A stretch of 64,000 bases of DNA. It comes from Candidatus Latescibacterota bacterium. Its GTDB lineage: Bacteria > Latescibacterota > UBA2968 > UBA8231. The stretch is from NCBI GenBank assembly GCA_965200315.1, contig OZ241362.1, forward strand, positions 1,056,001 to 1,120,000, read 5' to 3'. The notes under the pieces are model-generated. The model searched no databases. It had not been told where the DNA came from and saw only the letters and a program-made list of their open reading frames with translations. The position numbers and the translations under genes were made by a program. Below, in pieces: positions 44,441-60,535 of this stretch; the first letter of the stretch is position 1, and every line of letters starts with the position of its first letter.

Positions 44441-45445
44441 ATGAACTTAGAGAGAAAGGCTATATCCCAGTACCTGAAACGCAAAAAACTGCTCGCCGAC
44501 GAGGGCCCGATCCGCGTCCAGAGCTTGAGTGACGGGCTAAAAAACCGGATTTACTACGTAGAGGCGGCCAATCGGGCTTGGATCGTCAAGCAGGCGCACT
44601 CGCGCGCCCAAATCAAGGAGCGCTGGTGGATCGATCGGCGACGCATCTTCGCCGAGAAAAGCTGCATCGAGCGCCTAGGGCAATTTCTCGCTCCCGAGAT
44701 CTTGCCGGAAGTCCTGCTCGAAGACCGCACGGACTTCATCCTCGTGACGACTCCACCTCCGCACAATGCCCTGTCATGGGAGGGCGACTTGGTCAATGGC
44801 CGCATCGATCTGCAAATCGCCGTCCAGTGTGGCGAACTGCTGGCCACTGTCCACAACGAGACCGCCGGCTCGTCCGAGGTCGCCGACGAGTTTGCATCCA
44901 CTAAGGTATTTGAGCAACTGCGCATTGACCCTCACTACAACTATATCACCAACGCCTACCCCGACCTCAAAAAGGCCATTGCCGTCCATACCGATCGCCT
45001 GCTCAACGAGGGGTTTTGCCTCGTCTTAGGCGACTTGCGTCCCCGCAATATATGGGTCGCCAACGGTCATCCCTACTGGGTCGATTTTGCCACCGCCCAC
45101 TACGGTCACCCCACCTTTGACCTCGCCTTCTACACGGCTGATATGTGCGTCAAGGCCATGCAGAACACCGCCCAAAAAGCCGCCTATTTAGAGGCTGTCA
45201 ATGTATTTTGGAACAGCTATTTTCAGAGTGCGAACTACAAAGAGGTCGAGGAAGTCAAACACCAAGCCGTACATGATCTCGGCTGCCTGCTGTTGAGCGC
45301 GACCGATGGTCGCCAGCCGGTCGCGCTCTACGACGAGCGCATCATCGGGCTCTCGCGGCGCATCGCCCAGAGCCTGATTTTGACGGGGTTAGAGAAAATT
45401 GAGGACGTCACCGAGTTCGTCAATCGGACCCTGATCGACGGCTAG
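44441..45445 (+). CDS. APH/methylthioribose kinase-like phosphotransferase
   Basis: IVKQA, GDLRPRNI, VDF, HYGHPTFD. Confidence 0.75.
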   Translation: MNLERKAISQYLKRKKLLADEGPIRVQSLSDGLKNRIYYVEAANRAWIVKQAHSRAQIKERWWIDRRRIFAEKSCIERLGQFLAPEILPEVLLEDRTDFILVTTPPPHNALSWEGDLVNGRIDLQIAVQCGELLATVHNETAGSSEVADEFASTKVFEQLRIDPHYNYITNAYPDLKKAIAVHTDRLLNEGFCLVLGDLRPRNIWVANGHPYWVDFATAHYGHPTFDLAFYTADMCVKAMQNTAQKAAYLEAVNVFWNSYFQSANYKEVEEVKHQAVHDLGCLLLSATDGRQPVALYDERIIGLSRRIAQSLILTGLEKIEDVTEFVNRTLIDG

Positions 45446-46178
45446 CCCGCTGCAAATCTCCGCTGCTAGAGCGGATGTGCGCTGCCATCGCCTGCTGTGC
45501 GGCCTCCGCATCCCGACGCTGCAATGCCGCCAAGATCTGCTGGTGCTCCGCCAGCGATAGTTCGGCTCGGGGGCCAGCCAGCGACGGCTCTACTAAACTT
45601 TCCTTGATCCATTCTTGCAGATAGTTGCGCGTGGTTTCGAGCAAGCTGTAGAGAATGGAATTGTGAGTGCCCCGGGCAATGAGTAGGTGGAACTGCAAAT
45701 CGCTAGCGAGAAAGCGCCCCTCGTCAGAAAGCCCCCCGGCCATGCCAGCCAGCGCGTCGGCAATCGCCGCCAAATCCTCGGGCGTAGCCCGCTCAGCCGC
45801 CAAATAGGCGTTTTGCGACTCGAGCATCATCCGCGTCTCGCTCAGGTCTTGGAGCTTCTTGCCGTCGAGCAAAAACCCCCACTGCAACGCCCGCTCCACG
45901 TATTGGCTCTTGTCGCAGACAAACGTGCCCTCGCCCACGCGACCGTCGAGCAGGCCCATCATGGACAACGAGCGCAGGGCTTCGCGCAGCGAGGAGCGCC
46001 CAACCTGAAAGCGCTTGCACAACTCCCGTTCCGGCGGTAGCCTGTCGCCGGGCTTGAGAACATTGCGCTCAATTAAGTCGGTTATCTGCGCGATAATCTC
46101 GTCACTTACCGATGTGCGCTGCACCGGGCGCATGGCCGCGGCTGCGGCTTTTTTACTAGCGTGGACCAAGGTATTCAA
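45420..46178 (-). CDS. FadR/GntR-family transcriptional regulator (FCD domain); alternative start at 46133
   Basis: LKPGDRLPPERELC..FQVGRSSLREAL; DLQFH, EHQQI, MAAHI. Confidence 0.92.
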   Translation of the reverse strand: MNTLVHASKKAAAAAMRPVQRTSVSDEIIAQITDLIERNVLKPGDRLPPERELCKRFQVGRSSLREALRSLSMMGLLDGRVGEGTFVCDKSQYVERALQWGFLLDGKKLQDLSETRMMLESQNAYLAAERATPEDLAAIADALAGMAGGLSDEGRFLASDLQFHLLIARGTHNSILYSLLETTRNYLQEWIKESLVEPSLAGPRAELSLAEHQQILAALQRRDAEAAQQAMAAHIRSSSGDLQRASRRSGSD

Positions 46179-46199
46179 TCGCCGCTGGCGGAAAAATAT

Positions 46200-46228
46200 T
46201 TGCCGATGGTCTGACCATTAGCTATTTT
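46200..46228 (+). promoter_or_regulatory. Sigma70 promoter with FadR-type operator ATGGTCTGACCAT in the spacer
   Basis: TTGCCG-17-TATTTT; the palindrome at 46206-46218 matches the TGGT-N3-ACCA FadR/PdhR/LldR box. Confidence 0.75.
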
Positions 46229-46269
46229 GTCTAACAGTACTCAACTTAACGTTTTGCTGTCAAGAGGAA

Positions 46270-46911
46270 ATGCAGATGACACAGATTTTGGACCTCGGCC
46301 CGCGCATAGAGCTGGTCTCCATGGATTCCCACTGCCACCACATCTCCATCGCCCTCTATCGCCCCGGCCCGGATAACGCCCCGGCCTATAAAGTCCACAC
46401 CTACAGCCATCTTCCCGAAGCCGCCGAGCGCATCGCCGGGATCGCGGACGCCATGCAGATACTCGGGGGTATGGAGCAAACCAGCGATGGCCTACTTCGC
46501 TTCCCCTGTGGCCACGCGCATCTGTTCGCCGTCAAGCGGCTCTTCTTAGAGGCTTGTAAGCTGCCGCCAGCGCAACCCATAGAGCCGCGCCCGTTACACA
46601 TTTTCGACAAAAAAGCCAACGCCACCATTGCCGTCGCCAGCCGCGGGCAGGGCTTGTACGAGGCCCACGCCACCGAACAGGCCCTAGGCGCGGAACGCCG
46701 CGTCACCACCATCGCCCGCGGCCTAATCCGCCTCGGCGAAATGGAAGAAGTCGCCGATCAACCCAACCAAGTCCGCTTCGGCTGCGGCCACCCCCACGAC
46801 GCCCTAATCGGCCTCTTGCTCGTCCGCGCCCCCAACGTGCGCGCTGCCGTGCGCGAGGCCGAAGCCATGGCCAACCGCGGCGTGCTCTCAGCCCCTAGCG
46901 CCCAGGAATAA
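46270..46911 (+). CDS. Hypothetical protein with internal duplication (two RFxCGHxH motifs)
   Basis: SD GAGG; first gene of the operon; RFPCGHAH and RFGCGHPH. Confidence 0.8.
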   Translation: MQMTQILDLGPRIELVSMDSHCHHISIALYRPGPDNAPAYKVHTYSHLPEAAERIAGIADAMQILGGMEQTSDGLLRFPCGHAHLFAVKRLFLEACKLPPAQPIEPRPLHIFDKKANATIAVASRGQGLYEAHATEQALGAERRVTTIARGLIRLGEMEEVADQPNQVRFGCGHPHDALIGLLLVRAPNVRAAVREAEAMANRGVLSAPSAQE

Positions 46912-46922
46912 AGGAGTCTATC

Positions 46923-47957
46923 ATGACCTCTTCGATGACCAGCCGCGAGCGCGTACTCGCCGCCCTTGCCCGCGAGCCTGTGGATCGCACCCCACTCTGC
47001 AACCCAACCTCGTTGGCCACCGTCGAATTGATGGACCTCGTCGATGCCCCCTTCCCCGCGGCCAATCGCGAGCCGGAGCTTATGGCGCGGCTGGCCGCCA
47101 CCGGCTACACCGAGCTGGGCTTTGACACCATCATGCCAGTCTTCACCATCATTCAAGAGTCCTCGGCCCTCGGGTGCAAAATCCAGTGGGAGCAGAAGGA
47201 CAACTGGCCCACCGTCCGCATGAGTCAGCCGATCTGGGACGAACCTGACGACATCAAAATCCCCGCCGACCTCTGCACCCACCCCGACACGGCCTGCGTC
47301 ACTGAGGCGATCAAAATTCTGCGCAGGGAATACGGCGACGAAGTCGCCATCGTCGGCAAGACCATGGGGCCTTGGTCGCTGGGTTACCACTGCTTCGGAG
47401 TCGAACCTTTTCTGCTGCTGTCGCTCGACGACCCCGGCAAGACCAAGCTCTGCCTCGACCGCATGAAAGAGATCACCATTGAGTTCGGGCAGGCGCAGAT
47501 CGAGGCCGGGGCCGACGCCCTGACCCTGCCCGACCACGCTACCGGCGACCTCGTCAGCGGCGAGTACTATGAGCGCTACTTGCGCGATTTGCACATCGAG
47601 TTTGCCGAGCGGCTTTCGGTGCCCATCATCCTCCACATCTGCGGCCGCACGGTTGACCGCATGGAGTACATCGCCCAAACCGGCATGGCGGCCTTCCACT
47701 ACGACTCCAAGAACACGCCCGAGGAATCCGTCCAAATCGTGCGCGACCGCATCTCGTTGGTAGGCAATATCAACAACCCCGAGACCCTCTTTGCCAAAGG
47801 GCCAGAAACCGTCGGCGCGGAAGTTGTGCGCAACCTCGAAGCCGGCGTCCAGCTCATCGGCCCAGAGTGCGCCATCCCCTTGCAGACCTCCATCGAAAAC
47901 CTCAAAACCATCCCCCGCACGGTGCACGAGTGGCACCGCGACCAAGATCGCAACTAA
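46923..47957 (+). CDS. MtaA/CmuA-family (UroD fold) Zn-dependent corrinoid methyltransferase
   Basis: MTSRERVLAAL...DRTP, GKTMGPWSL, AQIEAGAD, ILHICG, GNINNP, GPECAIP. Confidence 0.88.
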   Translation: MTSSMTSRERVLAALAREPVDRTPLCNPTSLATVELMDLVDAPFPAANREPELMARLAATGYTELGFDTIMPVFTIIQESSALGCKIQWEQKDNWPTVRMSQPIWDEPDDIKIPADLCTHPDTACVTEAIKILRREYGDEVAIVGKTMGPWSLGYHCFGVEPFLLLSLDDPGKTKLCLDRMKEITIEFGQAQIEAGADALTLPDHATGDLVSGEYYERYLRDLHIEFAERLSVPIILHICGRTVDRMEYIAQTGMAAFHYDSKNTPEESVQIVRDRISLVGNINNPETLFAKGPETVGAEVVRNLEAGVQLIGPECAIPLQTSIENLKTIPRTVHEWHRDQDRN

Positions 47958-47970
47958 AAGAAGAGACCCT

Positions 47971-48726
47971 ATGGCAGACATCACCGACATCGCCAACGAA
48001 TTTATCCACGACGAGATCGAAGAGTTCATCGAGCGCGACGAAGAGCGCGAGCGCATCATCAATCTCTTCGCCCAAGCCAGCGAGCAGATGCAGAACATCG
48101 CTGCGGCTCTCATCGACGGCGACCACCTAACGGTTGACGAATTGACCGGCCAAGCCATTGCCGCGGGCGTGGAGGCCCTCGAAGTCATGGACGACGGACT
48201 GATCGCCGGCATGGCCATCGTCGGCATCAAATTCCGCGAAAACTTTATCTTCGTCCCCGAAGTGTTGGCTTGCGCCCGCGCCATGAAGGCTGGCATGACC
48301 CACATCGAACCCATTCTCTCGGCCTCGGGCGTCGATCCCATCGGCATTGTGATCATGGGCACGGTCAAGGGCGACCTTCACGACATCGGCAAAAACTTGT
48401 GCATCATGATGCTGCGCGGGGCCGGTTTCGTCGTCCACGACCTAGGCGTAGATACCTCCGAAGACGAGTTCATCGACGCCGTCGAAGAGCACCAAGCCCC
48501 GCTCTTGGGCATGTCGGCCCTGTTGACCACCACCATGCCCAACATGGGCAAGACCATCGAGGCCTTCATCGACGCCGACTTGCGCGACGACGTCAAAATC
48601 ATGGTCGGCGGCGCGCCCGTGACTCAGGAATTTGCCGACGACATGGGGGCCGATGGCTACGGCAAGGACGCCCTCGCCTGCGTGGCCTTGGCCAAGGATT
48701 TGCTGAGCGAAGTTGAGGACGAGTAG
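47971..48726 (+). CDS. Corrinoid (B12-binding) protein, MtaC/MttC-like, with acidic N-terminal extension
   Basis: FVPEVL..ARAM, GTVKGDLHDIGKN, GMSALLTTTM, VGGAPVT. Confidence 0.93.
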   Translation: MADITDIANEFIHDEIEEFIERDEERERIINLFAQASEQMQNIAAALIDGDHLTVDELTGQAIAAGVEALEVMDDGLIAGMAIVGIKFRENFIFVPEVLACARAMKAGMTHIEPILSASGVDPIGIVIMGTVKGDLHDIGKNLCIMMLRGAGFVVHDLGVDTSEDEFIDAVEEHQAPLLGMSALLTTTMPNMGKTIEAFIDADLRDDVKIMVGGAPVTQEFADDMGADGYGKDALACVALAKDLLSEVEDE

Positions 48727-48730
48727 CGGT

Positions 48731-48901
48731 GTGCAGATTGTCTTTCGAGCTATGAAAGAGGCCCCCAATGGCAACCCTCTAACGGGACGGTCAGCGAGAA
48801 CATTGGGCGTTCGCATCTGCGGGCCGCGAATCGACATCCCCATTCGCGCCGGAAGGGTCCACCCCCAGACAGGCGGAATGTCTGTAACTATACGATACTA
48901 A
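48731..48901 (+). pseudogene. Truncated Tse2-like ADP-ribosyltransferase-fold fragment
   Basis: VFRAMKEAPNGNPLTGRSARTLGVR...DIPI...VHPQTGGMSV, then an abrupt stop; resembles the R and S strands of ART toxins (recalled similarity). Confidence 0.45.
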
Positions 48902-49127
48902 AGAGAAGTGGGTGAAATATGAGTGATGCCCTCCAGTGCAAGCGATCTCTGAGAAGCGGATCTGATTTACATCCGTTGGAAATATGCAGGCTGAATTTGC
49001 CCCTCAAACAGCTTGCATCATGGGGCGGCTTGGTTGTTTGCGATCAGTCGTCGCACACAAAAATCAAATGGCCTGAATTAAAGGAGCTATAGGCTCAACG
49101 CAGATGCGCCCAGCCTCACAATAATCC

Positions 49128-51005
49128 ATGACCCAAATCGACCCCGCCGAATACCAAAAGCGCCTCGACCGCCTGTCGGGCATCCTCGCCGGCATCGCCA
49201 CCCACGCCGATGTGCAGGCCACCTTTCGCTGCCCTTATAAGAACCGCTTCGACCAATGCACCGCCCACTTCGGCTGCCGCAACCAGCGCAAGCCGCAAAA
49301 GCCGGGCGAACTGCTCCAATGCGGCAGCGACGACCAGCTCGACTACCGCTCGGCTTGGGAGTCGGCCCAACGCCCGGCCACGCCTAACCGCGGCCACATC
49401 CGCTGCGACAGCACCTCCTACCCGCTGTCCACCGGCGGCACCCTCTTCGACTACGCGGATCAGCTCGGCACCCGCGTACCCACTTCCTGTGGGCGCACGG
49501 GCCATTGCCACGAGTGCATCGTCGAAGTAACAAGCGGCGCGCAAGCCCTCAGTGCGCCAACGCCGGCCGAGGACTTCCTCGGCGGTGAATTCCGGCTCGC
49601 CTGCCAAGCCAAAGTCGAAGACGCCGATGTCGATATCGAGTTCGCACCGCTTTTTCGTACGCCCCGGATACTGACCCACACCGTGGAGCGCCCCGCCGAG
49701 CTCGATCCCGTAGTCCAGCGGCGCGGGCAAACCATCTACTACGGCGACGAGGAAATCGACCAATACCGCGGGCATCTCTACGGCCTAGCCATCGACTTGG
49801 GCACCACCACCATTGTCCTCGACTTAGTCGATCTGGAGACGGGCCAGAGCGTGCATTTGAGCGCGTTTGAAAACCCGCAGCGCTTTGGCGGCAGCGACAT
49901 CATGCACCGCATTTCCTACGATGGGCAACACCCCGGCGAGCTGCGCCAAGCCCTCGTCAAGGCACTCAACCACGAGATCGCTGATCTGTGCCGGCGCGGC
50001 GGCTTTGTGCGGCAGGAGATTTACGAGATCGTGGTCGCTGGCAACTCGACGATGCGCGACATCCTCTTCCGCCTCGACGTGCAGAGCATCGGTCAAAAGC
50101 CCTACAAATCGCGCATTGAGCACGAATACCTAAGCGGCGAACGCACCGCGACCAGCCTAGTCGAAAAGACCCGTCGCCTCGGCCTGAAGGCCAATCCCAA
50201 AGCGCGCGCGTACTCGCTGCCGCTGATCGCCAGCCACGTCGGCGCGGATGTAGCCGCCGACTTAGTCGCCGTTGATATGGACCTTTCCAGTGAGAGCGCA
50301 ATGCTGGTCGATGTGGGCACCAACACCGAAGTAGTAGTCGCGCACCAAGGTCGCCTCGTCGCGGCTTCCTGCCCGGCCGGCCCGGCCTTTGAGGGCGGTG
50401 GCATCACCTATGGGATGCCCGGCTGCGACGGAGCCATTGAATCTATCCGCTGGGACGGCGCACGTTGGCAGTGGGAAACCATTGGCGACACCACACCAGC
50501 GGGGCTGTGCGGCTCCGGGCTAATCGACCTCCTCGCCGAGTTGCGCCGCCACGATTTAATGACCCCCAAGGGCGTCTTCGCGGCCAAAAAGCGCCTGTTT
50601 GAGCTAGTACCCGAGCACGGCATCACCTTCTCGCGCCTCGACGCTTCCAACCTAGCCCAAGCCAAAGCCGCCAATTTCTGCGGTCAGTACATCGTCTTGC
50701 GGACCTTGGGCCTCAATCCGGGCGATGTGCAACAGCTCTACCTCGCCGGCGGCTTTGCCAACTACGTCGATGTTCAAGCCGCCATCGACATCGGCTTTTT
50801 GGCCCCCGTGCCCACAGCGCGCATCGCCAAGGTGGGCAATGCCGCCGCCCAAGGGGCGCGCGAAGTGCTGCTCTCCGCCGGCAAACGCGCCCGCATCGAA
50901 GCGCTGGCCAAGCGCATTGAGCACGTCGAATTAGAGACGACCCCCGACTTTTTTGAACTCTTCGTCGAGGGCTGCCAATTCAAACCCATGCCCGCCGCAC
51001 TTTAA
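49128..51005 (+). CDS. ASKHA-domain [2Fe-2S] reductive activator of corrinoid proteins (RACo/RamA, DUF4445)
   Basis: CGRTGHCHEC...RLAC, IDLGTTT, NPQRFGGSD, VDVGTNTE, AGPAFEG, GLCGSG, LAGGFA, VGNAA. Confidence 0.93.
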   Translation: MTQIDPAEYQKRLDRLSGILAGIATHADVQATFRCPYKNRFDQCTAHFGCRNQRKPQKPGELLQCGSDDQLDYRSAWESAQRPATPNRGHIRCDSTSYPLSTGGTLFDYADQLGTRVPTSCGRTGHCHECIVEVTSGAQALSAPTPAEDFLGGEFRLACQAKVEDADVDIEFAPLFRTPRILTHTVERPAELDPVVQRRGQTIYYGDEEIDQYRGHLYGLAIDLGTTTIVLDLVDLETGQSVHLSAFENPQRFGGSDIMHRISYDGQHPGELRQALVKALNHEIADLCRRGGFVRQEIYEIVVAGNSTMRDILFRLDVQSIGQKPYKSRIEHEYLSGERTATSLVEKTRRLGLKANPKARAYSLPLIASHVGADVAADLVAVDMDLSSESAMLVDVGTNTEVVVAHQGRLVAASCPAGPAFEGGGITYGMPGCDGAIESIRWDGARWQWETIGDTTPAGLCGSGLIDLLAELRRHDLMTPKGVFAAKKRLFELVPEHGITFSRLDASNLAQAKAANFCGQYIVLRTLGLNPGDVQQLYLAGGFANYVDVQAAIDIGFLAPVPTARIAKVGNAAAQGAREVLLSAGKRARIEALAKRIEHVELETTPDFFELFVEGCQFKPMPAAL

Positions 51006-51007
51006 CC

Positions 51008-52618
51008 ATGTCGCTGCCCGCGCTCCATCCACCCGCCCGCTACTCGGGGGCTTGGCAGAAGAAACCCCTGCGCCATTTGCTCAAAACCACCGACACCTTC
51101 GTCCACATCGTCGAGTTGGTGACCTCGCGGGGCTTAATCACCGAGCGCGACGGCCGCAAGGTCCTCGCCCTCGCCCGCCGCCTCGCCGAGCACCCGCAAT
51201 TCCACGCTCTGAGCATCACCGATAACCCCGGCGGCAACGCCATGATCAACCCGGACACCCTCGGCACCGACCTGATCTCGCGCGGCCAAGACGTCATCAT
51301 CCACCTCTCCTGCAAGGACTGGAACCGCAACGCGCTGCAAGGCCGCGCTTGGCAACTTGCCAGCGAGGGCTTCAACAACATCCTCGCCCTTTCTGGCGAC
51401 TACCCCATCAGTGGCTATCAGGGCACAGCCGGTGGGGTCTTCGACCTCGACTCGGTCGGCCTGCTCGAAATGTTCGCCGCCATGAACGCTGGCTTAAAAA
51501 TAAAAAAGGGCAAGCGGACTCAGCGCATGGAGGCCACGGATTTTTATCTAGGGGCCGTAGTCAATAACCACAAGCGCTACGAGCGCGAGGTCATGCCTCA
51601 GTACTTCAAGCTGGCCAAAAAAATCCACGTTGGCGCAGCTTTTGTCATCAGCCAGATCGGCTACGACGCGCGCAAGCAGGACGAGTTGCTCAAATACATG
51701 GCCTTGTGCGACCTCGAGGTCCCGGTCATCGCCAACGTGTACGTGCTCTCGCGGCCGGCGGCGCGCTTCTTTCACAAGGGTCACATTCCCGGGGTTGAAG
51801 TCACCGACAAATTGATGGCCGTCGTCGAAAAGCAGGCCCAAGCCAACGACAAGGGGCGGGCGTTCTTCTTGGAACTGGCCGCTAAGCAGTGCGCCATCGC
51901 CAAGGGCCTCGGCTACCGGGGAGCTTATCTCGGCGGGCACCTGCAATACGGCGACTACGAAAAAATCCTCGCTCTCGCCGCGACCTACTCGGAAGACGAC
52001 TGGCGCGACTTCGCCAAGGAACTCTGCTTTTCCTTTGCCGACGAATTCTACTTTTTTGAACCCGATGGCGACACCGGCCTCAGCTCAACGACCATCAACC
52101 GCGCGTACCTCGCCTCCAAGGAGCAAGCCGCCCTCCACCAAGCACGCGGCCGCCTGCCGCTGAGCTACAAGTTAAACCGCCGCATCCACGACCAAGTATT
52201 TGCGCCTGAGAGCGCGGGTTTTCGCACCGGTGCTCATCTCGCCCGCGCCCTAACCGAGCACCCCAAGGCCGCCAAGCTCGTCCACGCGGCCGAGCACGCG
52301 CTCAAAATCGCTGCTTTTGACTGCCGCGACTGCGGCGATTGCTCGCTGCCAGACATCGCCTACTTGTGCCCGGAATCGCAGTGCGTCAAAAACCAGCGCA
52401 ACGGCCCCTGCGGCGGCACACGCCAAGGCAAGTGCGAAGTCGGCGACAAGGACTGCATTTGGGCACGCGCGTACGACCGCCTCAAAGCCTATGGCGAAGA
52501 GGAACAGATGCTCGGCGACGCAGCCGTTATCAAGGACGCGGACTTACAGGGGACCAGTGCTTGGACCAACGCCTTTTTGCAAAAAGATCACCGTGGGAAG
52601 AAGAAAGATTCGCGGTAA
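51008..52618 (+). CDS. metF: Methylenetetrahydrofolate reductase with C-terminal Cys-rich (MetV/MTHFR_C) domain
   Basis: SITDNPGG, HLSCKDWNR, LALSGDYP, ISQIGYD; CRDCGDC...CPESQCVKNQRNGPCGG...CEV...CIW. Confidence 0.88.
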   Translation: MSLPALHPPARYSGAWQKKPLRHLLKTTDTFVHIVELVTSRGLITERDGRKVLALARRLAEHPQFHALSITDNPGGNAMINPDTLGTDLISRGQDVIIHLSCKDWNRNALQGRAWQLASEGFNNILALSGDYPISGYQGTAGGVFDLDSVGLLEMFAAMNAGLKIKKGKRTQRMEATDFYLGAVVNNHKRYEREVMPQYFKLAKKIHVGAAFVISQIGYDARKQDELLKYMALCDLEVPVIANVYVLSRPAARFFHKGHIPGVEVTDKLMAVVEKQAQANDKGRAFFLELAAKQCAIAKGLGYRGAYLGGHLQYGDYEKILALAATYSEDDWRDFAKELCFSFADEFYFFEPDGDTGLSSTTINRAYLASKEQAALHQARGRLPLSYKLNRRIHDQVFAPESAGFRTGAHLARALTEHPKAAKLVHAAEHALKIAAFDCRDCGDCSLPDIAYLCPESQCVKNQRNGPCGGTRQGKCEVGDKDCIWARAYDRLKAYGEEEQMLGDAAVIKDADLQGTSAWTNAFLQKDHRGKKKDSR

Positions 52619-52694
52619 GACTGCATTGTTGAAACCAGAGTAAACAGTGGGCTGTCTTGCGAGCTTGACGTAGCACAAACCATCAAATGAATAG

Positions 52695-53111
52695 ATGGCA
52701 GCCATCCACCACATCCGGTTATCAGTCTCCGATCTAGATACTTCGACGCGATTTTACTCGCCCTTACTAGAAGAGCTTGGATTCCGAAAGTTGTCCCCGC
52801 GGCTGACAGAGAAGGGCGAGATCGACAGATTGCGATTTGAGAGGAATGGGATGATCCTGCTGATCGGCCACACTACAGAAGCAGGCCGCTACGATAGGGC
52901 CAAGCCGGGGCTACACCATATCGCCTTTTCTGTCGATTCACGGGCAGAAGTTGAAAAAATCTACGAATACGAAGAGGTAATCAAGAACCTAGAGCATGTG
53001 AATGTCGAAGACCCACCTATCGACTGTCCAGAATACGGCGAGGGATACTACGCGACTTTCTTCTTCGACCCCGACGGTATCAAGCTCGAAGTAACGTACA
53101 CCCCAGAATAA
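52695..53111 (+). CDS. VOC/glyoxalase-family protein
   Basis: IHHIRLSVSDL, GLHHIAF, YYATFFFDPDGIKLE; lower GC than flanks. Confidence 0.9.
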   Translation: MAAIHHIRLSVSDLDTSTRFYSPLLEELGFRKLSPRLTEKGEIDRLRFERNGMILLIGHTTEAGRYDRAKPGLHHIAFSVDSRAEVEKIYEYEEVIKNLEHVNVEDPPIDCPEYGEGYYATFFFDPDGIKLEVTYTPE

Positions 53112-53132
53112 CTTGGAGCGGAAAACACTAGC

Positions 53133-53852
53133 ATGATTCGCGACGTGCTGAATGATCTTTTTTCCAAAAAGTTCCTTGATGACCACTTAGATGAATGGGG
53201 AATCGTAGAGCACTGTGACCATCTGACCTCGTTGGGCTATTCGACCACGATTACTCCTAGGACGATCTATGAGGCAGTTGACCGCAGCGCAGATGTAATT
53301 GTGACTCATCACGATGCCTGGAACTTCATGTTTGAGCAAAGGGATGAGGTTTGTGGCTTACTCCAAGACAAAGGCTTAACGCATATCTGGGCTCATCTGC
53401 CGTTGGATCTAGCAGACTTTGGAACATCGTCCACACTGCTCACCAAAATCGGGTGTCACCATGTTTATAAACCCTCAGCATGTGAGGCTCGCATCGGCAA
53501 ACTGCCTACCCCGACGAGCTTCCAATCGGTTTGCTCGACATTGAATTCGCTCCTTCAAGAGCAACCACGCAGCATGTATGACGCGAATCGAACAGTCCAA
53601 CGTATAGGTTGCGTCACTGGAGCCGGTATCTACACCAGCTACATTCGGGACGCCATGTCCCATGACATCGACATGTACCTAACTGGAGAAACCAATCTTT
53701 ATCTACTCGAATACGCTCGGCACCACGAACTCAACGTGGCGGTGTATTCCCACAACTACACAGAGTTGCCCGGCGTTGAGACGTTCGCACATAGGCTCTG
53801 TCGTTCTCTAAAACTTGAGATGAAAGGACACTTGGGGGACGCCCACTTCTAA
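53133..53852 (+). CDS. Nif3-like dinuclear metal centre protein
   Basis: IVTHHD, AHLPLD, GCVTGAG, YLTGE, SHNYTE; lower GC than flanks. Confidence 0.85.
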   Translation: MIRDVLNDLFSKKFLDDHLDEWGIVEHCDHLTSLGYSTTITPRTIYEAVDRSADVIVTHHDAWNFMFEQRDEVCGLLQDKGLTHIWAHLPLDLADFGTSSTLLTKIGCHHVYKPSACEARIGKLPTPTSFQSVCSTLNSLLQEQPRSMYDANRTVQRIGCVTGAGIYTSYIRDAMSHDIDMYLTGETNLYLLEYARHHELNVAVYSHNYTELPGVETFAHRLCRSLKLEMKGHLGDAHF

Positions 53853-54129
53853 TCGCAACCGAGAGGCATCGTCCTCAGAAACTAAGGCCCTGTGGTTGGA
53901 ACAATAAGAAGCTGGCTATGTTGGCTCCTCGTCCAAAAGTATGAGGACAACGGGGTTGACCAAGGGCAGGGGAGGCGATACCTTAAAAAAGTTTGGCTTC
54001 GTGGACGAAATGGCGGCGATTTTCTTGCCAGTAAATCGCATCCCATCCATAGAAGCCTATCTTATTTAACTTCGTGCAACAACGCCCGTCCTAAATCACT
54101 AATCCACGTACAAACAAATACGGAATCCA

Positions 54130-55158
54130 ATGAACATCCCCGGTACGGACCGTCCCTTCGTCGTCATCGGCGAAAACATCCACACCACCCGCGTCGTCTT
54201 GCGCAAGGGCAAGCTCATCGGCCCAGACCCCCAAGGCGTCGAATCAGTGCGCTTCCGCGATGCCAATAACAAGCGCCGCTTCCTCCAGATTCCCGAAGCA
54301 GTTAAAACAACCCAAGACTACGAGGAAGGCCGCGTCAAATACCTCAAAATCGCCGTGCAACAAGCCATGCTCGGCAACGTGGATGCCCTCGACTACCTCC
54401 GTCGCCAAGTACAGCGCCAAGAAGCGGCCGGCACCGATTTCCTCGACCTCAATGTCGATGAGATATCCCTCAAGCCCGCGGAGCGGCAAGAGGCCATGCG
54501 CTGGTTGGTACAGGCGGTATCGGCCATGTCGCAGACGGCACTGGCCATTGACTCCTCCCAGCTAGACACCCTCGCCGTCGGCCTCGAAGCCGGTGACGAC
54601 CACCCCCAGCGCCTACTGCTCAACTCCGCGTCCTTGGAGCGGCCTGAAGCCCTAGATCTGGCCAAACGGTACAACGCCCAAGTCATCATCACTGCGGCGG
54701 GCGAGTCCGGTATGCCACAAAATGCACAAGAACGGATCGATCACGCCCGGCAGATGGTCGACAAGGCCCTCGCCTTGGGGCTGTCGCTCGCCGACTTGTA
54801 CATTGACCCCCTGATCTTCCCCATCTCGGTTGATGCGCAATTCGGCCACCACGCTTTTGACGCCATCCGCCAACTGCGCGGCGAGTTAGGTGCCGAAATC
54901 CACATCACCGGAGGCTTCTCCAATGTCTCCTTCGGCCTGCCCTGTCGCCACTTGATCAACGATGTCTTCCTGCTGCTGGCCGTCGAAGCCGGTGCCGACA
55001 GCGCAATCATGGATCCGACTACCACCTCACTATCCGACCTCTTTGCCTTCGACCGCCAAGCCCGGCCCTACCAGCTAGCTGAGGATATGTTGCTGGGCCG
55101 AGACGAGTACTGCGCCGCCTTCCTGCGAGCCTATCGCAAGGGCGAACTCGCAGCCTAG
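54130..55158 (+). CDS. Methyl-THF:corrinoid methyltransferase (pterin-binding, AcsE/MetH folate domain)
   Basis: VIGENIH, LDLNVD, IDSS, LLNSAS, IDPL, GGFSNVSFGLP, DSAIMDP. Confidence 0.9.
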   Translation: MNIPGTDRPFVVIGENIHTTRVVLRKGKLIGPDPQGVESVRFRDANNKRRFLQIPEAVKTTQDYEEGRVKYLKIAVQQAMLGNVDALDYLRRQVQRQEAAGTDFLDLNVDEISLKPAERQEAMRWLVQAVSAMSQTALAIDSSQLDTLAVGLEAGDDHPQRLLLNSASLERPEALDLAKRYNAQVIITAAGESGMPQNAQERIDHARQMVDKALALGLSLADLYIDPLIFPISVDAQFGHHAFDAIRQLRGELGAEIHITGGFSNVSFGLPCRHLINDVFLLLAVEAGADSAIMDPTTTSLSDLFAFDRQARPYQLAEDMLLGRDEYCAAFLRAYRKGELAA

Positions 55159-55261
55159 TCCGTTGGTCATTTTTGGCCTTATCGCGTAGATTAAAAACTG
55201 AGCTTAGGGCGACCTTTGTCGCCATCGGTCCCGTAGATCGCCAACGGAAAGGAGGGTCAAT

Positions 55262-56188
55262 ATGCGAAACGACAGAATCTCTATTCTTGCTGCTCTGCTG
55301 TCGTTGACCCTCACCGCCTGCGGCGAAATATCCGATACCGAGTCGGTCGCCGAGTCGGTCGCCAATTTGAGCAAGGATCACACCGTCCACTCATTGGGCG
55401 GCCAACGCCCAGCCTTCTTGGTCCTCCCAGCCGATCACGACCCCAAGACGCCTATTCCGCTCGTCCTCAGTCTGCACGGCTTCACCAGCCATTTAGCTGA
55501 GCACGACCGCTATTTTGGTCTCTCGCAGCGGGTGAATGCTGAGCACTTCGCCCTCATTATGGCCAACGGTACGCACGACCCCGATGGCAGGCGCTTTTGG
55601 AACGCCACGGACTTCTGCTGCGACCTCCACAACACTCAGGTCGATGACGTGCAGTACCTTTCCGGGCTATTAGAAGAAGCCGCCACGCATATCGCCGTAG
55701 AGCGCATCTTCGTCCTCGGGCACTCCAACGGCGGCTTTATGTCCTACCGACTCGCCTGCGAAGGCATCCCGGGCTTAGTCGCCATTGCTAGCCTCGCCGG
55801 TACTTCCTTTAGCGACCCCTCCCGTTGCGCTTTTGCATCCCCAGTCTCGGTGCTGCAAATCCACGGCACAGCCGACAAGGTCATAGCCTACGACGGCAGC
55901 ACGGGTGAGCATGAGTACGCAGGCGCACAAGAAGTCGCGCTGCGCTGGGCGGCACTCGCCCGCTGCGACCTCACCGATCCAGAAACCCTTCCTCCGCTCG
56001 ACCTCGACCAAAAACTCGACGGCCCCGAGACGGTCCGCGCCCGCTACCGCACGGGCTGCCGCAACGACGTCACCATCGAGTTGTGGACCATAGAGCAAGG
56101 CGCGCACGTACCGAACTTTGCGCCCGACTTCGGCCAACGCTTGCTCAAATGGCTGTTCAGCGACTCCCGCGCCGACACCCTGTCCTAA
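55262..56188 (+). CDS. LpqC/PHB-depolymerase-like alpha/beta hydrolase lipoprotein
   Basis: Lipobox LTAC; LHG, WNATDFCC, GHSNGG, HGTAD, GAH; strong SD AGGAGG. Confidence 0.85.
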   Translation: MRNDRISILAALLSLTLTACGEISDTESVAESVANLSKDHTVHSLGGQRPAFLVLPADHDPKTPIPLVLSLHGFTSHLAEHDRYFGLSQRVNAEHFALIMANGTHDPDGRRFWNATDFCCDLHNTQVDDVQYLSGLLEEAATHIAVERIFVLGHSNGGFMSYRLACEGIPGLVAIASLAGTSFSDPSRCAFASPVSVLQIHGTADKVIAYDGSTGEHEYAGAQEVALRWAALARCDLTDPETLPPLDLDQKLDGPETVRARYRTGCRNDVTIELWTIEQGAHVPNFAPDFGQRLLKWLFSDSRADTLS

Positions 56189-56203
56189 GACGGAGACAAG
56201 CCT

Positions 56204-57193
56204 GTGTCCCTTTTCCTTCAGCGCCTTAATGACCCGCGGCCTCTCTTGTACGACGGTGGTTTTGGCTCCGAGCTTTTCGCCCGTCACATCGAACTAACCA
56301 ACTCCACCCTCGCCAACGAAAGCCATCCAGAGGCGGTCGTCGATATCCACACCGACTATATCACCGCAGGTGCTGACTGCATTGGCACCAACACCTTTGT
56401 CGCCTCTGAGTTACACCTCGCCATGGCCGATAAAGACCCGACTCAAGCCGGTGCGCTGGCCCGACGCGGGGCCGAACTGGCACAGCGCGCCCGGGAGCGC
56501 TGCGGACGTGACGTCTTCATCGCCGGCTCCATCGGCCCCTCCCCCGGGGCCATCGAAGCCGACGCAGGCAGTACGGATTTCGGCATCGCCAACGACAAGG
56601 TCCGCGCTGCACATCAGCGCATCATCGACGCGCTCTGCGAAGGCGGGGTCGATTTTTTCTCCGTTGAAACCCAGTTTTCAGCCGTCGAAGCGGCCATGGT
56701 CTGCGACATCGCCCGCCAGACCGGCCTGCCCATTGCCGTCAACCTCGCGCTCAAATACACGCAAGACCGCAAAAGCAAGCAGGTCGTCTATCGCACCGAT
56801 TGGGGACATTCGGTCGCCGACCTGTTGGACATGCTCGCCTCGGGCCAATACTCCAGCGGCGACAACCTCCTCGACCACGTCCACCTCGTCGGGATCAACT
56901 GCGGCGCTGAAACTCGGCGCAGCGAGCACACCGGCATGCCATACGCCCTCCACGGCGTTGAGCAGCTTAAGGCCGCCATGCAGGAGCGCGGCCTCGACAA
57001 GAAGCTGATGACCTATCCCAACGCCGGTATGCCGCAGCTCAACAGCGCCCTCCGCACCATCTACTCGCAAAGCCCCGAGGAAATGGCCACGTACGTCCCA
57101 TATTTAGCGGCGGCCGGCGTCCAGATCATTGGCGGCTGCTGCGGCACCACGCCGGAGCACATCCGCGCCTTTCGCCAAGCACTCGACTCATGA
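56204..57193 (+). CDS. Homocysteine S-methyltransferase domain protein (split MetH, N-terminal part)
   Basis: DGGFGSEL, TNTF, AGSIGP, GINCG, PNAG, GGCCGTTPEHI. Confidence 0.92.
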   Translation: MSLFLQRLNDPRPLLYDGGFGSELFARHIELTNSTLANESHPEAVVDIHTDYITAGADCIGTNTFVASELHLAMADKDPTQAGALARRGAELAQRARERCGRDVFIAGSIGPSPGAIEADAGSTDFGIANDKVRAAHQRIIDALCEGGVDFFSVETQFSAVEAAMVCDIARQTGLPIAVNLALKYTQDRKSKQVVYRTDWGHSVADLLDMLASGQYSSGDNLLDHVHLVGINCGAETRRSEHTGMPYALHGVEQLKAAMQERGLDKKLMTYPNAGMPQLNSALRTIYSQSPEEMATYVPYLAAAGVQIIGGCCGTTPEHIRAFRQALDS

Positions 57194-57471
57194 CTCAATA
57201 CCAAGTCCTTTACTGGCGCGACATCCCCGTGCAGATCAAGCTCTTTGCCGGCCGCCGGCCGAGTTCACACACCCTACCCGCCCGCTTCCAACTCGCGATC
57301 GACCGCATCGCCATGCAGGAAGGGCTCGTGGGCACCGACGCCTATTTGGACCAGTGGCATTGGTCCGCAAAGCAAGAGCGCGCCGGCACCCCCGAAGACG
57401 TGCTGCAGACGCTCTTGCGCGAAACCGAAGAGGAAGGCGACCGCATCCTCGCCGCGTATAAACAATCGTGA
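57190..57471 (+). CDS. Virulence_fact-domain small protein (usually near split MetH/MetF genes)
   Basis: YWRDIPVQI...[15 protein letters not shown]...DAYLDQW. Confidence 0.85.
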
Positions 57472-59342
57472 TTTTCTACGACAAAGAGTACCAAGTCATC
57501 GTCGTCGGCGGCGGCCACGCCGGCACCGAGGCCGCACTCGCCGCGGCGCGCATGGGAGCCGAGACCCTGCTCCTGACCATGAACTTGGACACCATTGGCC
57601 AGCTATCCTGTAACCCGGCTATCGGCGGGATCGGCAAGGGGCACATCGTCAAGGAAATCGACGCGCTTGGCGGCCAGATGGCCGTCAACATCGACCGCAC
57701 CGGCATCCAATTCCGCCGCCTCAACACCTCGCGCGGGCCAGCCGTGCGCGCCTCGCGCGCCCAAGCCGACAAAAAGGACTACCAATTCGAGCTGAAGTAC
57801 ACCTGCGAACAGCAAGAGCATCTCGACATCCGCCAGGGCCTGATGGAGAGCTTGCTAATCGAGGATGGAGCCGTCCAAGGCGTCGGCATCAAGGGCGGCA
57901 TCGCCTACCGCGGGCGCACCGTCATCCTCACGACCGGCACCTTCCTGCGCGGCAAAATTCACGTCGGCGATTTTTCTTATAGCGCCGGGCGCACCGGCGA
58001 GACTGCCGCCGAAAAAGCCGCCGAGGGCTTGGTCGCGCTCGGCTTTGAAACCGGACGCCTCAAAACCGGCACTCCACCGCGCATCAACGGTCGCACCCTC
58101 GACTTTGCCGCGTTTGAAGAACAGCCCGGCGACGACCCACCGCGCCCCTTTTCATATTCGGTGCCCAAAATCACCCAGCCGCAAATGCCCTGTTGGATCA
58201 CCTACACCAACGCCCACACCCACGAAATCGTCCAAGAGAACCTGTCGCGCTCGGCCATGTACAGCGGGCGCATCGAGGGCATCGGCCCGCGCTATTGCCC
58301 CTCCATAGAGGACAAAATCGCACGCTTTGCCGACAAGGAGCGGCACCAAGTTTTCGTCGAGCCAGAGGGGCGGCGCACCCTCGAGTTTTATCTCAACGGC
58401 CTGTCGATGAGCCTGCCGGAAGCCCTGCAACCCCAGATCGTGCGCTCCCTGCCCGGCCTCGAACGGGCCGAGATTCTGCGCCCGGCGTACGCGGTCGAAT
58501 ACGATTACGCCCCGCCGACCCAACTCTACCCGCACCTAGAGACCAAGCGCGTGGCCAATCTCTTCTTCGCCGGCCAAATAAACGGCACCACTGGCTACGA
58601 AGAAGCTGCGGCCCAAGGGATTATGGCCGGCATCAACGCCGTGCTCAAGGCTCGCGGCGACGACCCGCTCGTGCTCACGCGCGCCGATGCGTACATCGGC
58701 GTCCTAATTGACGACCTCGTGACCAAAGGTACGCTGGAGCCGTACCGCATCTTCACCTCGCGCGCCGAGCACCGCCTGCTCTTGCGCGAGGACAATGCCG
58801 ATGACCGCCTGATGGCCAAGGGCCGGGCGCTAGGGCTGATCGACGACGACCTGTGGCACCAGTTTCAAACCAAGCAGCAACAAGTCGCCGCCGAGCGCGA
58901 ACGCCTACAGCACGAGCGCGTCAAACCGACCGAAAAGGTGCAAGAGGTCTTGGCGCGCCAAGGTACCACTCCCATCACTGAATCGACCTCGCTCGCCGAG
59001 TTGCTGCGTCGCCCCCAACTCAACTACGACCACCTCTGCGAATTCGCCCCACCACCACAGCCTCTCTCGCCAAACGCGGCCGAACACGTCGAGGCCGAGA
59101 TTAAATACGCGGGGTACATCAAGCGCCAAGAGACCCAAGCGCAAAAGCTCAAGCGCCTCGAATCCCTGCGCCTGCCAGTCGATTTTGACTTCGCCGCTTC
59201 CAGCCTGAACATTTCAACCGAGGCGCGCCAAAAGCTCGCGGCGATCCGCCCACAGACGCTAGGACAGGCGTCGCGCATTTCCGGGGTCTCACCTGCGGAC
59301 CTCGCTTCGCTCATGGTCTTCTTGCACGCCCGCTCCCAATGA
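57468..59342 (+). CDS. mnmG: tRNA U34 carboxymethylaminomethyl modification enzyme
   Basis: [55 protein letters not shown]. Confidence 0.97.
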
Positions 59343-59391
59343 CGATAAAACGATGAGTACATTATACAGCCCAATCGGGGCGTGTATGAGC

Positions 59392-59420
59392 TTGACGCTG
59401 TTTCGCACCTTTGTTAAGCT
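59392..59420 (+). promoter_or_regulatory. Sigma70 promoter of the methylase gene
   Basis: TTGACG-17bp-TAAGCT; SD GAAGGAG before ATG 59487. Confidence 0.55.
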
Positions 59421-59486
59421 CGATTGGTTCGCTCCTGAGGCGTTCATTGTATCATTACCAACTCCACAACCGAAGGAGTGAATGCT

Positions 59487-60535
59487 ATGGGCAATAGTCT
59501 AATAATTCAGCAAGTCATAGATGGACAACGAGACCTTGGATTATTGAAAGGAAACTGCCGAGAAGTTATTAAAACGATACCGGACGATAGCATTGACTGC
59601 GTAATAACGTCGCCTCCCTACTGGCAATTAAGAGAGTACGACATAAGTGAAGACACAGATCAGCTAATAGGCACAGAGAAAACTCCCGAGGAATACGTAA
59701 ATCACATTACAGAAGTTTTTAAGCAAATCAAAAGAATTCTGAAAAAGACGGGATCGGTATGGCTAAATCTCGGAGACAAATACCACAATAAAAATCTAAT
59801 GGGGATGCCTTGGCGCGTTGCTCTGGCTATGCAGGACGATGGTTGGATTTTGCGAAACGATGTAATTTGGTCGCAAATGAAGGGGACGCAAAGTGCTAAA
59901 GACAGATTGCGGGATATGTACGAACATATTTTCCACTTTGTAAAAAACAAGAAATACTACTACGACGCAGATAGCATAAGAATTAAACCTACGAAACTCC
60001 CTAAAGTAACAGGTAACGAGACTATATCAGCGACTGGTGTGAGTGGCAAAAAATACCGTCAGCAAATTATCGACTCGGATGCCTTAACTCAAAGCGAAAA
60101 AACGCCGCCATAAAAGCACTCGACGAGACGCTAGGAAGAATTCGCTCCGGCGAACTCGTCGATTTCAGAATGACAATTCGAGGAACGCAACGCACGTACC
60201 ACAGCAACAACGGTAAAGTGAGTGGACGAGCGAAAGAACTGGAGAATAAAGGGTATTTTATTTTAACGAGTAAATCCAAGGGATACATTCCATCCGATAT
60301 ATGGAATATAGTGCCAGAGGATGAGTGGAGGAAAGATGCCCATTACGCCGTGTTTCCCATTGAATTATTGCAAATTCCGATCAAAGCTACCAGTCGCAAA
60401 AAAGGTATAGTTCTCGATCCATTTATGGGAACTGGCAGTACCCTAGTCGCCGCTAATCAAATTGAATTGAGTGACGACTACATAAAGGTCGCTAATCAAA
60501 GATTAGAAAAAATCCAGTTGAGTTTCAGAATGTAG
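59487..60535 (+). pseudogene. N4-cytosine (beta-class) DNA methyltransferase, frameshifted
   Basis: TSPPY in ORF1; HYAVFP and DPFMGTGST in ORF2; frames join at the A6 run 60097-60102 (one more A gives EKNAAIKALDETL...). Confidence 0.85.

Follow-up and report, generated by a model that had tools for sequence, protein, structure and literature searches.

A UroD-fold methyltransferase and a conserved partner protein adjoin the modules of a split methionine synthase in a corrinoid gene cluster of a Candidatus Latescibacterota bacterium

To characterise a cluster of genes for corrinoid-dependent methyl transfer we analysed a window of 64,000 bp from the genome of a Candidatus Latescibacterota bacterium (assembly GCA_965200315.1, contig OZ241362.1, positions 1,056,001 to 1,120,000). 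The cluster combines a UroD-fold methyltransferase (MtaA-like) and a 211-residue protein encoded directly upstream of it (ORF211) with a corrinoid protein (CoP), its putative reductive activase (RACo), a methyl-tetrahydrofolate:corrinoid methyltransferase (MeTr), a fused methylenetetrahydrofolate reductase (MTHFR; MetF-MetV), a stand-alone homocysteine S-methyltransferase (HcyMT) and a small protein of the Virulence_fact family. The reading that we prefer, to which we give an even chance, is that the MtaA-like enzyme and ORF211 load methyl from a small donor onto a shared CoP, from which HcyMT forms methionine, and that MeTr links the carrier to folate. The donor would probably be an S- or Se-methyl compound, a methyl halide also being compatible. 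A bolder form of this reading, which we hold only tentatively, makes ORF211 and the MtaA-like enzyme a two-protein methyltransferase I that passes methyl from a volatile or dissolved compound through CoP to homocysteine, as a folate-independent, donor-driven methionine synthase; candidate donors would then be methanethiol, dimethylsulfide, methylmercaptopropionate, methyl selenides and methyl halides.

The evidence that carries this reading comes from 46 related loci found with ORF211, which were compared with their 10-kb flanks, some of them cut by contig ends, which limits the counts. The original prediction, made from the sequence of the window, had treated the genes as one system, and co-conservation proved to be far above chance, with the MtaA-like gene in 45, the CoP gene in 40 and the RACo gene in 39 of the loci (Table 1). 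Loci with ORF211 at 67–90% identity are titled as metagenome-assembled genomes (MAGs) of Latescibacterota or Gemmatimonadota and the more distant ones as Poribacteria, Opitutales or Alphaproteobacteria MAGs, giving five phylum labels overall; since the nearest public relatives are labelled Latescibacterota or Gemmatimonadota, the Rhodobacterales frame in which the cluster had first been viewed was abandoned. Identity to the window over the 15 most distant loci is 46–55% for ORF211, 76–83% for the MtaA-like protein and 78–84% for CoP. The GC content of the related loci spans 47% to 74%, and this range together with the high identity of MtaA and CoP suggests strong constraint rather than recent transfer.

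Judged by gene order, the constant unit of these loci is ORF211-MtaA-CoP-RACo, and its partner varies between HcyMT alone, MeTr alone, or both. Three genomes of the same class as ours (98–99% complete, from a genus designated g19) carry ORF211-MtaA-CoP-RACo-HcyMT at the locus; a stand-alone pterin module is absent genome-wide in all three, and their lone MeTr match lies within a canonical MetH frame of 1222–1250 aa. In this form the MtaA-like enzyme is therefore the sole possible methyl source for HcyMT, which is the strongest support for placing it on the methyl-donor side, as had been predicted. Seven alphaproteobacterial loci read ORF211-MtaA-CoP-RACo-MeTr; among the genomes with this MeTr-only form, one has a canonical MetH, and another lacks both the MetH domain and any HcyMT found with the window protein as query. 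Both spokes are present in this window, L063 and L064. In two Poribacteria genomes the genes are spread over three sites, one with the ORF211-MtaA pair, one with CoP and MeTr, and one with HcyMT. The phylum was also sampled in a fixed set of 151 genomes (Table 2), where, as the counts per genus show, the retention of ORF211 does not depend on which kind of methionine synthase is present. By family, ORF211 was found in 56/63 (f1), 29/30 (f2), 19/19 (f3), 2/2 (f4) and 2/2 (f6) genomes, and in none of the 34 genomes of families f5 and f7–f14.

Table 1. Features of the cluster and its surroundings in the window, with their occurrence in the 46 related loci and identity to the window protein.
Feature	Position	Strand	Evidence and remarks	Related loci	Identity
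GntR+FCD regulator	45420-46178	-	Divergently transcribed; Pfam GntR 66 bits, FCD 92 bits	31/46	58-95%
Palindrome ATGGTCTGACCAT	46206-46218		Candidate operator, divergent promoter
ORF211, 211 aa	46276-46911	+	Between regulator and MtaA-like gene; no Pfam/NCBIfam match	46/46 (query)	46-90%
MtaA-like, URO-D / MtaA-CmuA family methyltransferase (UroD fold)	46923-47957	+	URO-D 208.8 bits	45/46, directly downstream of ORF211 at 13-184 bases; single miss ends at contig end	76-97%
Corrinoid protein (CoP)	47971-48726	+	B12-binding_2 + B12-binding	40/46	78-97%
Non-coding remnant, 401 bp	48727-49127		Insertion hot spot, CoP-RACo junction
RACo/RamA-type ATP-dependent reductive activase	49128-51005	+	Fer2 + Raco_middle + RACo_C_ter	39/46	58-96%
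MetF-MetV, MTHFR + DUF5981 (MetV-like C-terminal domain) fusion	51008-52618	+	Pfam	27/46 (matches of at least half length)	66-98%
VOC/glyoxalase-fold gene	52695-53111	+	Pfam; insertion	3/46
NIF3-like gene	53133-53852	+	Pfam; insertion	2/46
MeTr, methyl-tetrahydrofolate:corrinoid methyltransferase	54130-55158	+	Pterin_bind 71.7 bits	17/46	50-94%
Secreted-type alpha/beta hydrolase, PHB-depolymerase-like	55262-56188	+	Weak Pfam/NCBIfam matches; insertion	3/46
HcyMT, stand-alone homocysteine S-methyltransferase (MetH Hcy-domain type)	56204-57193	+	S-methyl_trans 191 bits	12/46	62-92%
Virulence_fact (PF13769) small protein	57190-57471	+	Pfam 64.7 bits; 4-base overlap with HcyMT	10/46	57-94%
MnmG	57468-59342	+	Directly after Virulence_fact

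Table 2. Occurrence of ORF211, the MetH reactivation domain and Virulence_fact in the fixed set of 151 genomes sampled from the phylum.
Group	ORF211	MetH reactivation domain	Virulence_fact
Whole sample	109/151	63/151	88/151
Own genus	21/21	0/21	20/21
Genus g19	19/20	20/20	0/20
Genus g20	15/15	3/15	15/15
Genus g7	7/8	8/8	7/8

The genome is a single contig of 5.36 Mb (completeness 94.7%, contamination 7.8%); in the window, an open reading frame (ORF) listing and scans with Pfam and NCBIfam served as gene calls. PF02310 matched CoP and one further protein weakly (33 bits) genome-wide, leaving CoP as the single methyltransferase-type corrinoid protein; RACo and the stand-alone MeTr are likewise single-copy, and tblastn of the cluster proteins against the genome recovered no second copy of ORF211, CoP, RACo or MeTr. 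With one CoP and one RACo, all corrinoid methyl traffic would run through a single carrier kept active by a single activase, in support of the shared corrinoid protein proposed at the outset, and CoP would serve the MtaA-like, folate and homocysteine spokes alike. The lack of MttB, MtaB and an S-adenosylmethionine (AdoMet) reactivation domain, first noted for the window, was borne out across the whole genome at its 94.7% completeness: Met_synt_B12 (PF02965, the MetH reactivation domain) and MTTB (PF06253) had no match and MtaB was not found. The CoP gene starts at the ATG at 47971, the longer frame from 47791 being upstream read-through, and its beginning MADITD... is common to all 39 relatives listed. 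A DxHxxG motif is visible in the translation, and NCBIfam models of MtgC type score best, below their cut-offs. As a separate observation, the first 35 residues of CoP (47971-48075) form a conserved acidic extension, IANEFIR.EIEEF.ER, which plasmid-borne corrinoid proteins do not share, none of the 30 listed matches reaching upstream of query residue 31; the extension might serve as a helix on which the basic tail of ORF211, described below, docks.

The MtaA-like protein reaches the family models TIGR01463 (249.8 bits, cut-off 235.4) and PRK06252 (257.6 bits, cut-off 244) and fails the equivalog cut-offs of MtaA_Meth (228.9 against 400 bits) and MtbA (196.4 against 600 bits). It matches Methanosarcina mazei MtaA (4AY7) over its full length (179 bits, E 1.2e-51), with the LHICG and distal PxC motifs aligned. 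In a 20-sequence alignment with a mean column identity of 85%, H238, C240 and C316, which we take from the family literature, and not from a structure, to be zinc ligands, are invariant in 20/20 sequences, so that the His-Cys-Cys zinc motif of S/Se-type methyltransferases of the UroD superfamily is present. This motif is described as the mark of the S/Se enzymes of the superfamily, the cysteines being replaced in O-demethylases (PMC10418091, Kountz and Balskus), and it disfavours the methoxy chemistry that had been entertained for the cluster. The other URO-D gene of the genome scores 388.7 bits, as a true uroporphyrinogen decarboxylase. A database search with the MtaA-like protein gave 3175 relatives at E<=1e-20 among 8000 candidates scored, most of which bear the family name alone (two JGI entries have methanogen-type enzyme names), and some relatives at 83–84% identity are named Acidobacteriota or Bryobacteraceae.

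ORF211 was overlooked when the genes of the cluster were first listed; all genes named at that time were confirmed by Pfam and NCBIfam. It begins at the second ATG (46276, not 46270), and this start and its ribosome-binding site are kept in the alignment of the divergent promoter. Library scans gave no Pfam or NCBIfam match. Of 1482 candidate relatives 800 qualified at E<=0.001, nearly all of about 211 aa, named nothing beyond 'hypothetical' and without a Pfam domain; the family has 203 representatives among 1.84 billion proteins. An alignment of 29 sequences revealed two repeats, each with F-x-C-x3-H (a Cys-x3-His pair), invariant residues C78, H82, C94, C170, H174 and D175, and a conserved basic C-terminal tail, RAPNVR..RE...RG.L.APS.Q. 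The AlphaFold2 (AF2) model (pLDDT 88.6, pTM 0.85) predicts two tandem beta-beta-beta-alpha-beta-alpha units, with tail residues 203–211 below a pLDDT of 50. Foldseek found no match of this model in the PDB at E<=0.001, and the ESM Atlas no usable one; structural comparison via VIA reached a best Z of 7.0 for a urea carboxylase domain, with KipI/allophanate-hydrolase-like rows at Z ~4, and was set aside as chance-level likeness. In Poribacteria the ORF211-MtaA pair stands alone in four loci, CoP being encoded elsewhere in the two genomes checked. Because ORF211 stays with MtaA where CoP lies elsewhere, we suppose that it serves the MtaA-like enzyme as a subunit or specificity factor, presumably in contact with it.

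On the homocysteine side, the only other homocysteine S-methyltransferase copy in the genome is a YitJ-like HcyMT-MTHFR fusion of 639 aa outside the window (C1:56162-58027). This fusion contains the other MTHFR of the genome and is probably the housekeeping MetF, the cluster MetF being a second MTHFR. HcyMT is encoded in 12 loci, in 10 of which Virulence_fact comes next; the latter is missing from all 20 g19 genomes, which have canonical MetH, although HcyMT is present there, as seen in three loci cut out. The AF2 model of Virulence_fact (pLDDT 95.9) shows a small beta-sheet and a long helix, with no Foldseek match in the PDB at E<=0.001. On the folate side, MeTr scores 199 bits with PRK07535, below the cut-off of 259. 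Two classes of MetF-MetV, 92–98% and 66–69% identical to the window protein, were observed in relatives whose RACo is 92–95% identical; they share the MTHFR+DUF5981 architecture and occupy the same position (L001, L002, L007, L009, L014, L018–L020, L022, L024, L025), a pattern that looks like gene replacement in place.

The proposed mechanism joins these parts as follows. CoP would carry methyl as CH3-Co(III), RACo would spend ATP to keep this carrier active as Co(I), and three methyltransferases would dock on it. The MtaA-like zinc enzyme with its partner ORF211 would take methyl from the small donor and load Co(I)-CoP; HcyMT with Virulence_fact would hand the methyl of CoP to homocysteine, as the sole B12-dependent methionine synthase of this organism; and MeTr would exchange methyl with tetrahydrofolate (THF), MetF-MetV connecting CH3-THF and CH2-THF. 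The GntR/FCD regulator would sit on the palindrome upstream of ORF211 and free the operon on binding a ligand, probably an organic acid.

The regulator had been called FadR. A local regulator of GntR/FCD type does exist, and the divergent promoter contains an invariant palindrome; the regulator is no FadR, scoring 23.9 and 23.2 bits with FadR models that have cut-offs of 189 and 249, and it reaches no NCBIfam equivalog, the best matches below cut-off being NanR/LldR-like. Its gene adjoins ORF211 in 31 of the 46 loci. The divergent region of 97 bases is 91–98% identical among the 12 matches listed in relatives (27 in all). In an alignment of 10 loci, which reaches relatives whose regulator is only 59% identical, the core TGGTC-N-GACCA of the palindrome ATGGTC-T-GACCAT is invariant in every locus and the flanks diverge, making the palindrome a likely operator of this regulator; its form resembles what we take to be the consensus for operators of FadR-subfamily GntR regulators. 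The perfect 13-mer occurs once in the window and in the genome. The other exact cores (two) and the one-mismatch 13-mers, eight sites in all, fall without exception within open frames of 120 aa or more, which points to no further target genes. For an FCD regulator one expects an organic acid as ligand, not a halomethane, and by this analogy our guess would be a carboxylate.

Several observations weigh against the preferred reading. CmuA, a methyl-halide enzyme, retains the His and both Cys in pairwise alignment with the MtaA-like protein, so the zinc motif is no proof of S/Se chemistry and methyl halides are compatible with it. The MtaA-like enzyme is unusually conserved for a substrate-specific enzyme (76–83% across phylum labels, with ORF211 there at 46–55%), and no conserved transporter or downstream catabolic gene was seen beside the module among 35 ORFs around the pair in four distant loci. 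Short MetE-C-like ORFs are present in 6/6 genomes tested, so that methionine may have further routes. Contigs from RNA libraries (four runs of one study) span the whole stretch, yet DNA carry-over is possible; they end at the divergent promoter in 3/4 runs, and as the same runs hold contigs of up to 123 kb we do not count this coverage as evidence of transcription. Energetics also bear on the role of folate. Methyl transfer from a methyl-pterin to a thiol is worth about −30 kJ/mol, and by values of this order a thioether donor could feed homocysteine, in a roughly neutral step, and hardly THF. According to the abstract of 10.1101/548461 the loading of Co(I) from a thioether is thermodynamically unfavourable, so transfer from a thioether to THF would be uphill, which is hard to square with the MeTr-only alphaproteobacterial clusters if no stronger donor is at work. 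The routing of methyl to THF with oxidation via MetF, as originally proposed, would thus be uphill for a thioether donor, and the direction of MetF was itself a supposition. A donor stronger than a thioether is one possibility and flow from folate to a thiol in the MeTr-only clusters another; a third is that MeTr and MetF-MetV here mainly supply methyl rather than oxidise it. With these options side by side we place the preferred reading no higher than an even chance.

The same proteins could also work in the opposite direction, which we consider unlikely: CH3-THF from MetF-MetV would pass through MeTr and CoP to the MtaA-like/ORF211 pair and on to a small thiol, sulfide or selenide, yielding a methyl thioether for detoxification or biosynthesis in parallel to the methionine formed by HcyMT. 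The closest characterised relatives, the MtaA enzymes, methylate thiols from CH3-corrinoid; MtpA is reported to methylate mercaptopropionate robustly, the reverse being unfavourable (abstract of 10.1101/548461), and ClMlp2, a bacterial relative, to methylate selenide and sulfide in vitro (PMC10418091). The seven MeTr-only alphaproteobacterial loci would then be downhill, MetF-MetV would run in its usual reductive direction, and an internal thiol or a gas would need no transporter. However, in the three MetH-containing g19 genomes with ORF211-MtaA-CoP-RACo-HcyMT and no stand-alone MeTr, the only methyl donor would be methionine via a reversed HcyMT, with no driving force. It also counts against this direction that ComA (PF02679, coenzyme M biosynthesis) was not found in the genome, other coenzyme M routes not having been searched, which makes the classical acceptor unlikely.

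It is decidedly improbable that ORF211, and possibly the MtaA-like protein too, assists the corrinoid machinery in place of DUF1638, with a part in, for example, cofactor loading, protection or reactivation. DUF1638 (PF07796) has no match in this genome and is absent from 6/6 ORF211-carrying genomes tested (this one and five others), all of which have RACo. In Alphaproteobacteria, DUF1638 and RamA-like proteins are reported to co-occur almost perfectly and DUF1638 to be needed for methionine synthesis (PMC5764234); we found PF07796 in 12/81 sampled alphaproteobacterial genomes. ORF211 would suit such a role: almost every genome of four families of the phylum has it, in one copy (106/114), it lies in housekeeping neighbourhoods, and its conserved Cys/His pairs could bind metal or cobalamin. 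As a divergent DUF1638, however, it was rejected, hhalign giving a probability of 0.4% (29 against 7 sequences) and the Pfam scan no match; the catalytic zinc motif of the MtaA-like protein is complete and the protein resembles an active methyltransferase along its whole length, and the four Poribacteria loci with the pair alone tie ORF211 to MtaA, not to CoP or RACo.

Least credible, and very unlikely in our view, is that the MtaA-like protein is a methyltransferase I for methyl halides or O-demethylation, in a Cmu-like or O-demethylase-like catabolism with methyl-THF oxidised via MetF. Strong donors would run downhill to both THF and homocysteine and so fit all three architectures, a gas could enter without a transporter, the His and Cys positions are conserved in CmuA, and purU adjoins cmuA in pCMU01, the Cmu-type set having also a pterin methyltransferase and a second MetF, presumably those named CmuB and MetF2. 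Yet the MtaA-like protein is only 25% identical to CmuA of pCMU01 (43.9 bits, against 179 bits to MtaA), its FCD regulator would not be expected to sense a halomethane, and folD and purU are missing from the cluster genes, the whole genome not having been searched for them. The UroD superfamily as outlined in PMC13222342 does include CmuA, CdmB, MecE/MecC and aromatic O-demethylases, but CdmB, an anaerobic haloalkane enzyme, is described there as being without zinc, and O-demethylases replace the Cys ligands (PMC10418091).

That a demethylase and a split MetH share a corrinoid protein is an already published principle, established for glycine betaine in the MtgBCDE hub of Ruegeria pomeroyi DSS-3, where demethylase and methionine synthase have the corrinoid protein and MeTr in common (Mausz et al. 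2025, PMC12478193). As described in that main text, the hub resembles our cluster in its separate CoP and pterin methyltransferase, stand-alone HcyMT, RamA-type activase and second MetF by the pterin gene, and in that canonical MetH, absent from our genus, is often absent there. It differs in using MtgB of the MttB family, of which this genome has none, in place of a UroD-fold MtaA-like zinc enzyme with ORF211; in addition DUF1638 is absent here and CoP stays below the MtgC model cut-offs. Neither MtaA, UroD nor sponges are mentioned in the main text of PMC12478193. Phaeobacter inhibens has a three-part split MetH with RamA-like and DUF1638 proteins (Price et al. 2018, PMC5764234), in which, as here, the HcyMT, pterin and B12 modules are separate and reactivation falls to a RamA-like ferredoxin-ASKHA protein, with no AdoMet domain. 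As described there, it has no MtaA-like protein or ORF211 and needs the DUF1638 protein that is missing here, whereas in our genome most parts are clustered under one local regulator.

Among enzymes of UroD type, the soluble methanogen coenzyme M methyltransferases MtaA, MtbA, MtsA and MtpA and the bacterial Mlp clusters offer the closest chemistry, thiol/thioether or selenide chemistry having been proposed for the bacterial relatives (PMC10418091). The methanogen enzymes differ in that the MtaA-like protein falls short of the MtaA and MtbA equivalog cut-offs and ComA was not found here. Type 1 mlp clusters encode two or three Mlps (at least Mlp2 and Mlp3), compared with one UroD-type gene here, and the parts of PMC10418091 that deal with them place them in obligate anaerobes, without folate and homocysteine modules and with no ORF211-like partner described. 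The Cmu pathway of Methylorubrum extorquens CM4 (pCMU01, L047) likewise leads from a UroD-type methyltransferase and a corrinoid module to folate, with one-carbon genes nearby. However, CmuA fuses the two modules that are separate genes here (its corrinoid half is 34.6% identical to CoP, its methyltransferase half 25% to the MtaA-like protein, as above), and the pathway is without HcyMT, RACo and ORF211; the UroD-family gene upstream of cmuA has no likeness to ORF211. Our literature search, which covered main texts, found no description of the MtaA-like/ORF211 arrangement, and the features not described in the papers covered are the UroD-type spoke, its ORF211 partner and the folate-free HcyMT-only form beside canonical MetH.

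If the preferred reading is true, methionine would be made and one-carbon units gained without spending folate-bound methyl, and many uncultured bacteria would draw both from an environmental methyl compound via a B12 relay. The carriers would include nearly all members of four families of the phylum as well as MAGs labelled Poribacteria, Opitutales, Alphaproteobacteria, Gemmatimonadota and Acidobacteriota. The link between methionine and osmolyte demethylation would be extended to sulfur, selenium or halide chemistry, a new cobalamin demand would arise in symbioses, and the ORF211 family, which adjoins an enzyme that is among the best conserved in these genomes, would gain a function. Were ORF211 and the MtaA-like enzyme indeed a two-protein methyltransferase I, they would represent a new biological sink for methyl compounds in sponge symbionts and in bacteria of ocean and soil. 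The cluster is a compact four- or five-gene set that is open to reconstitution.

In the compact related loci L026–L031 and L063 the order is GntR<-ORF211-MtaA-CoP-RACo-MetFV-MeTr-HcyMT-VirF-MnmG, L030 being without MetFV and MeTr matches. Against this arrangement, the VOC, NIF3-like and alpha/beta-hydrolase genes, which lie within the span of the pathway first proposed and were not named in it, are by their distribution non-conserved insertions and no part of the system; GC drops to 0.50 at 53000-53999. A scan for promoters and terminators was not above shuffled expectation (2 promoters against 3.7; 22 terminators against 16.2, sd 4.5). Pieces of the remnant between CoP and RACo match genes inserted at the same place in L001, L002, L004, L021 and L022, its first 162 bases matching the start of a Tse2-like gene. 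The junction is an insertion hot spot in relatives (L001 12446-13909, L004 6355-12288, L025 12693-16508), which hold a gene with a Tse2-like ADP-ribosyltransferase domain and unnamed ORFs, a HerA-like ATPase with a DNA methylase, or an SNF2-type helicase.

We also noted three short MetE-C-like frames outside the window (C1:2514228-2515250, 3447229-3447825 and 2573089-2573592), which may be core, folate-independent methionine synthases or relatives of these. On a Poribacteria contig (L033, 10646-12176) the MtaA-like frame continues in frame into a corrinoid domain without the N-terminal cap, so that the 510-aa product is a CmuA-like fusion; this locus ends at the contig start and may be an assembly artefact. 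Downstream of mnmG, a low-GC stretch at 59000-61000 (0.41–0.49 against ~0.60) with a DNA methylase gene (N6_N4_Mtase, 59478-60113) is likely to be foreign DNA.

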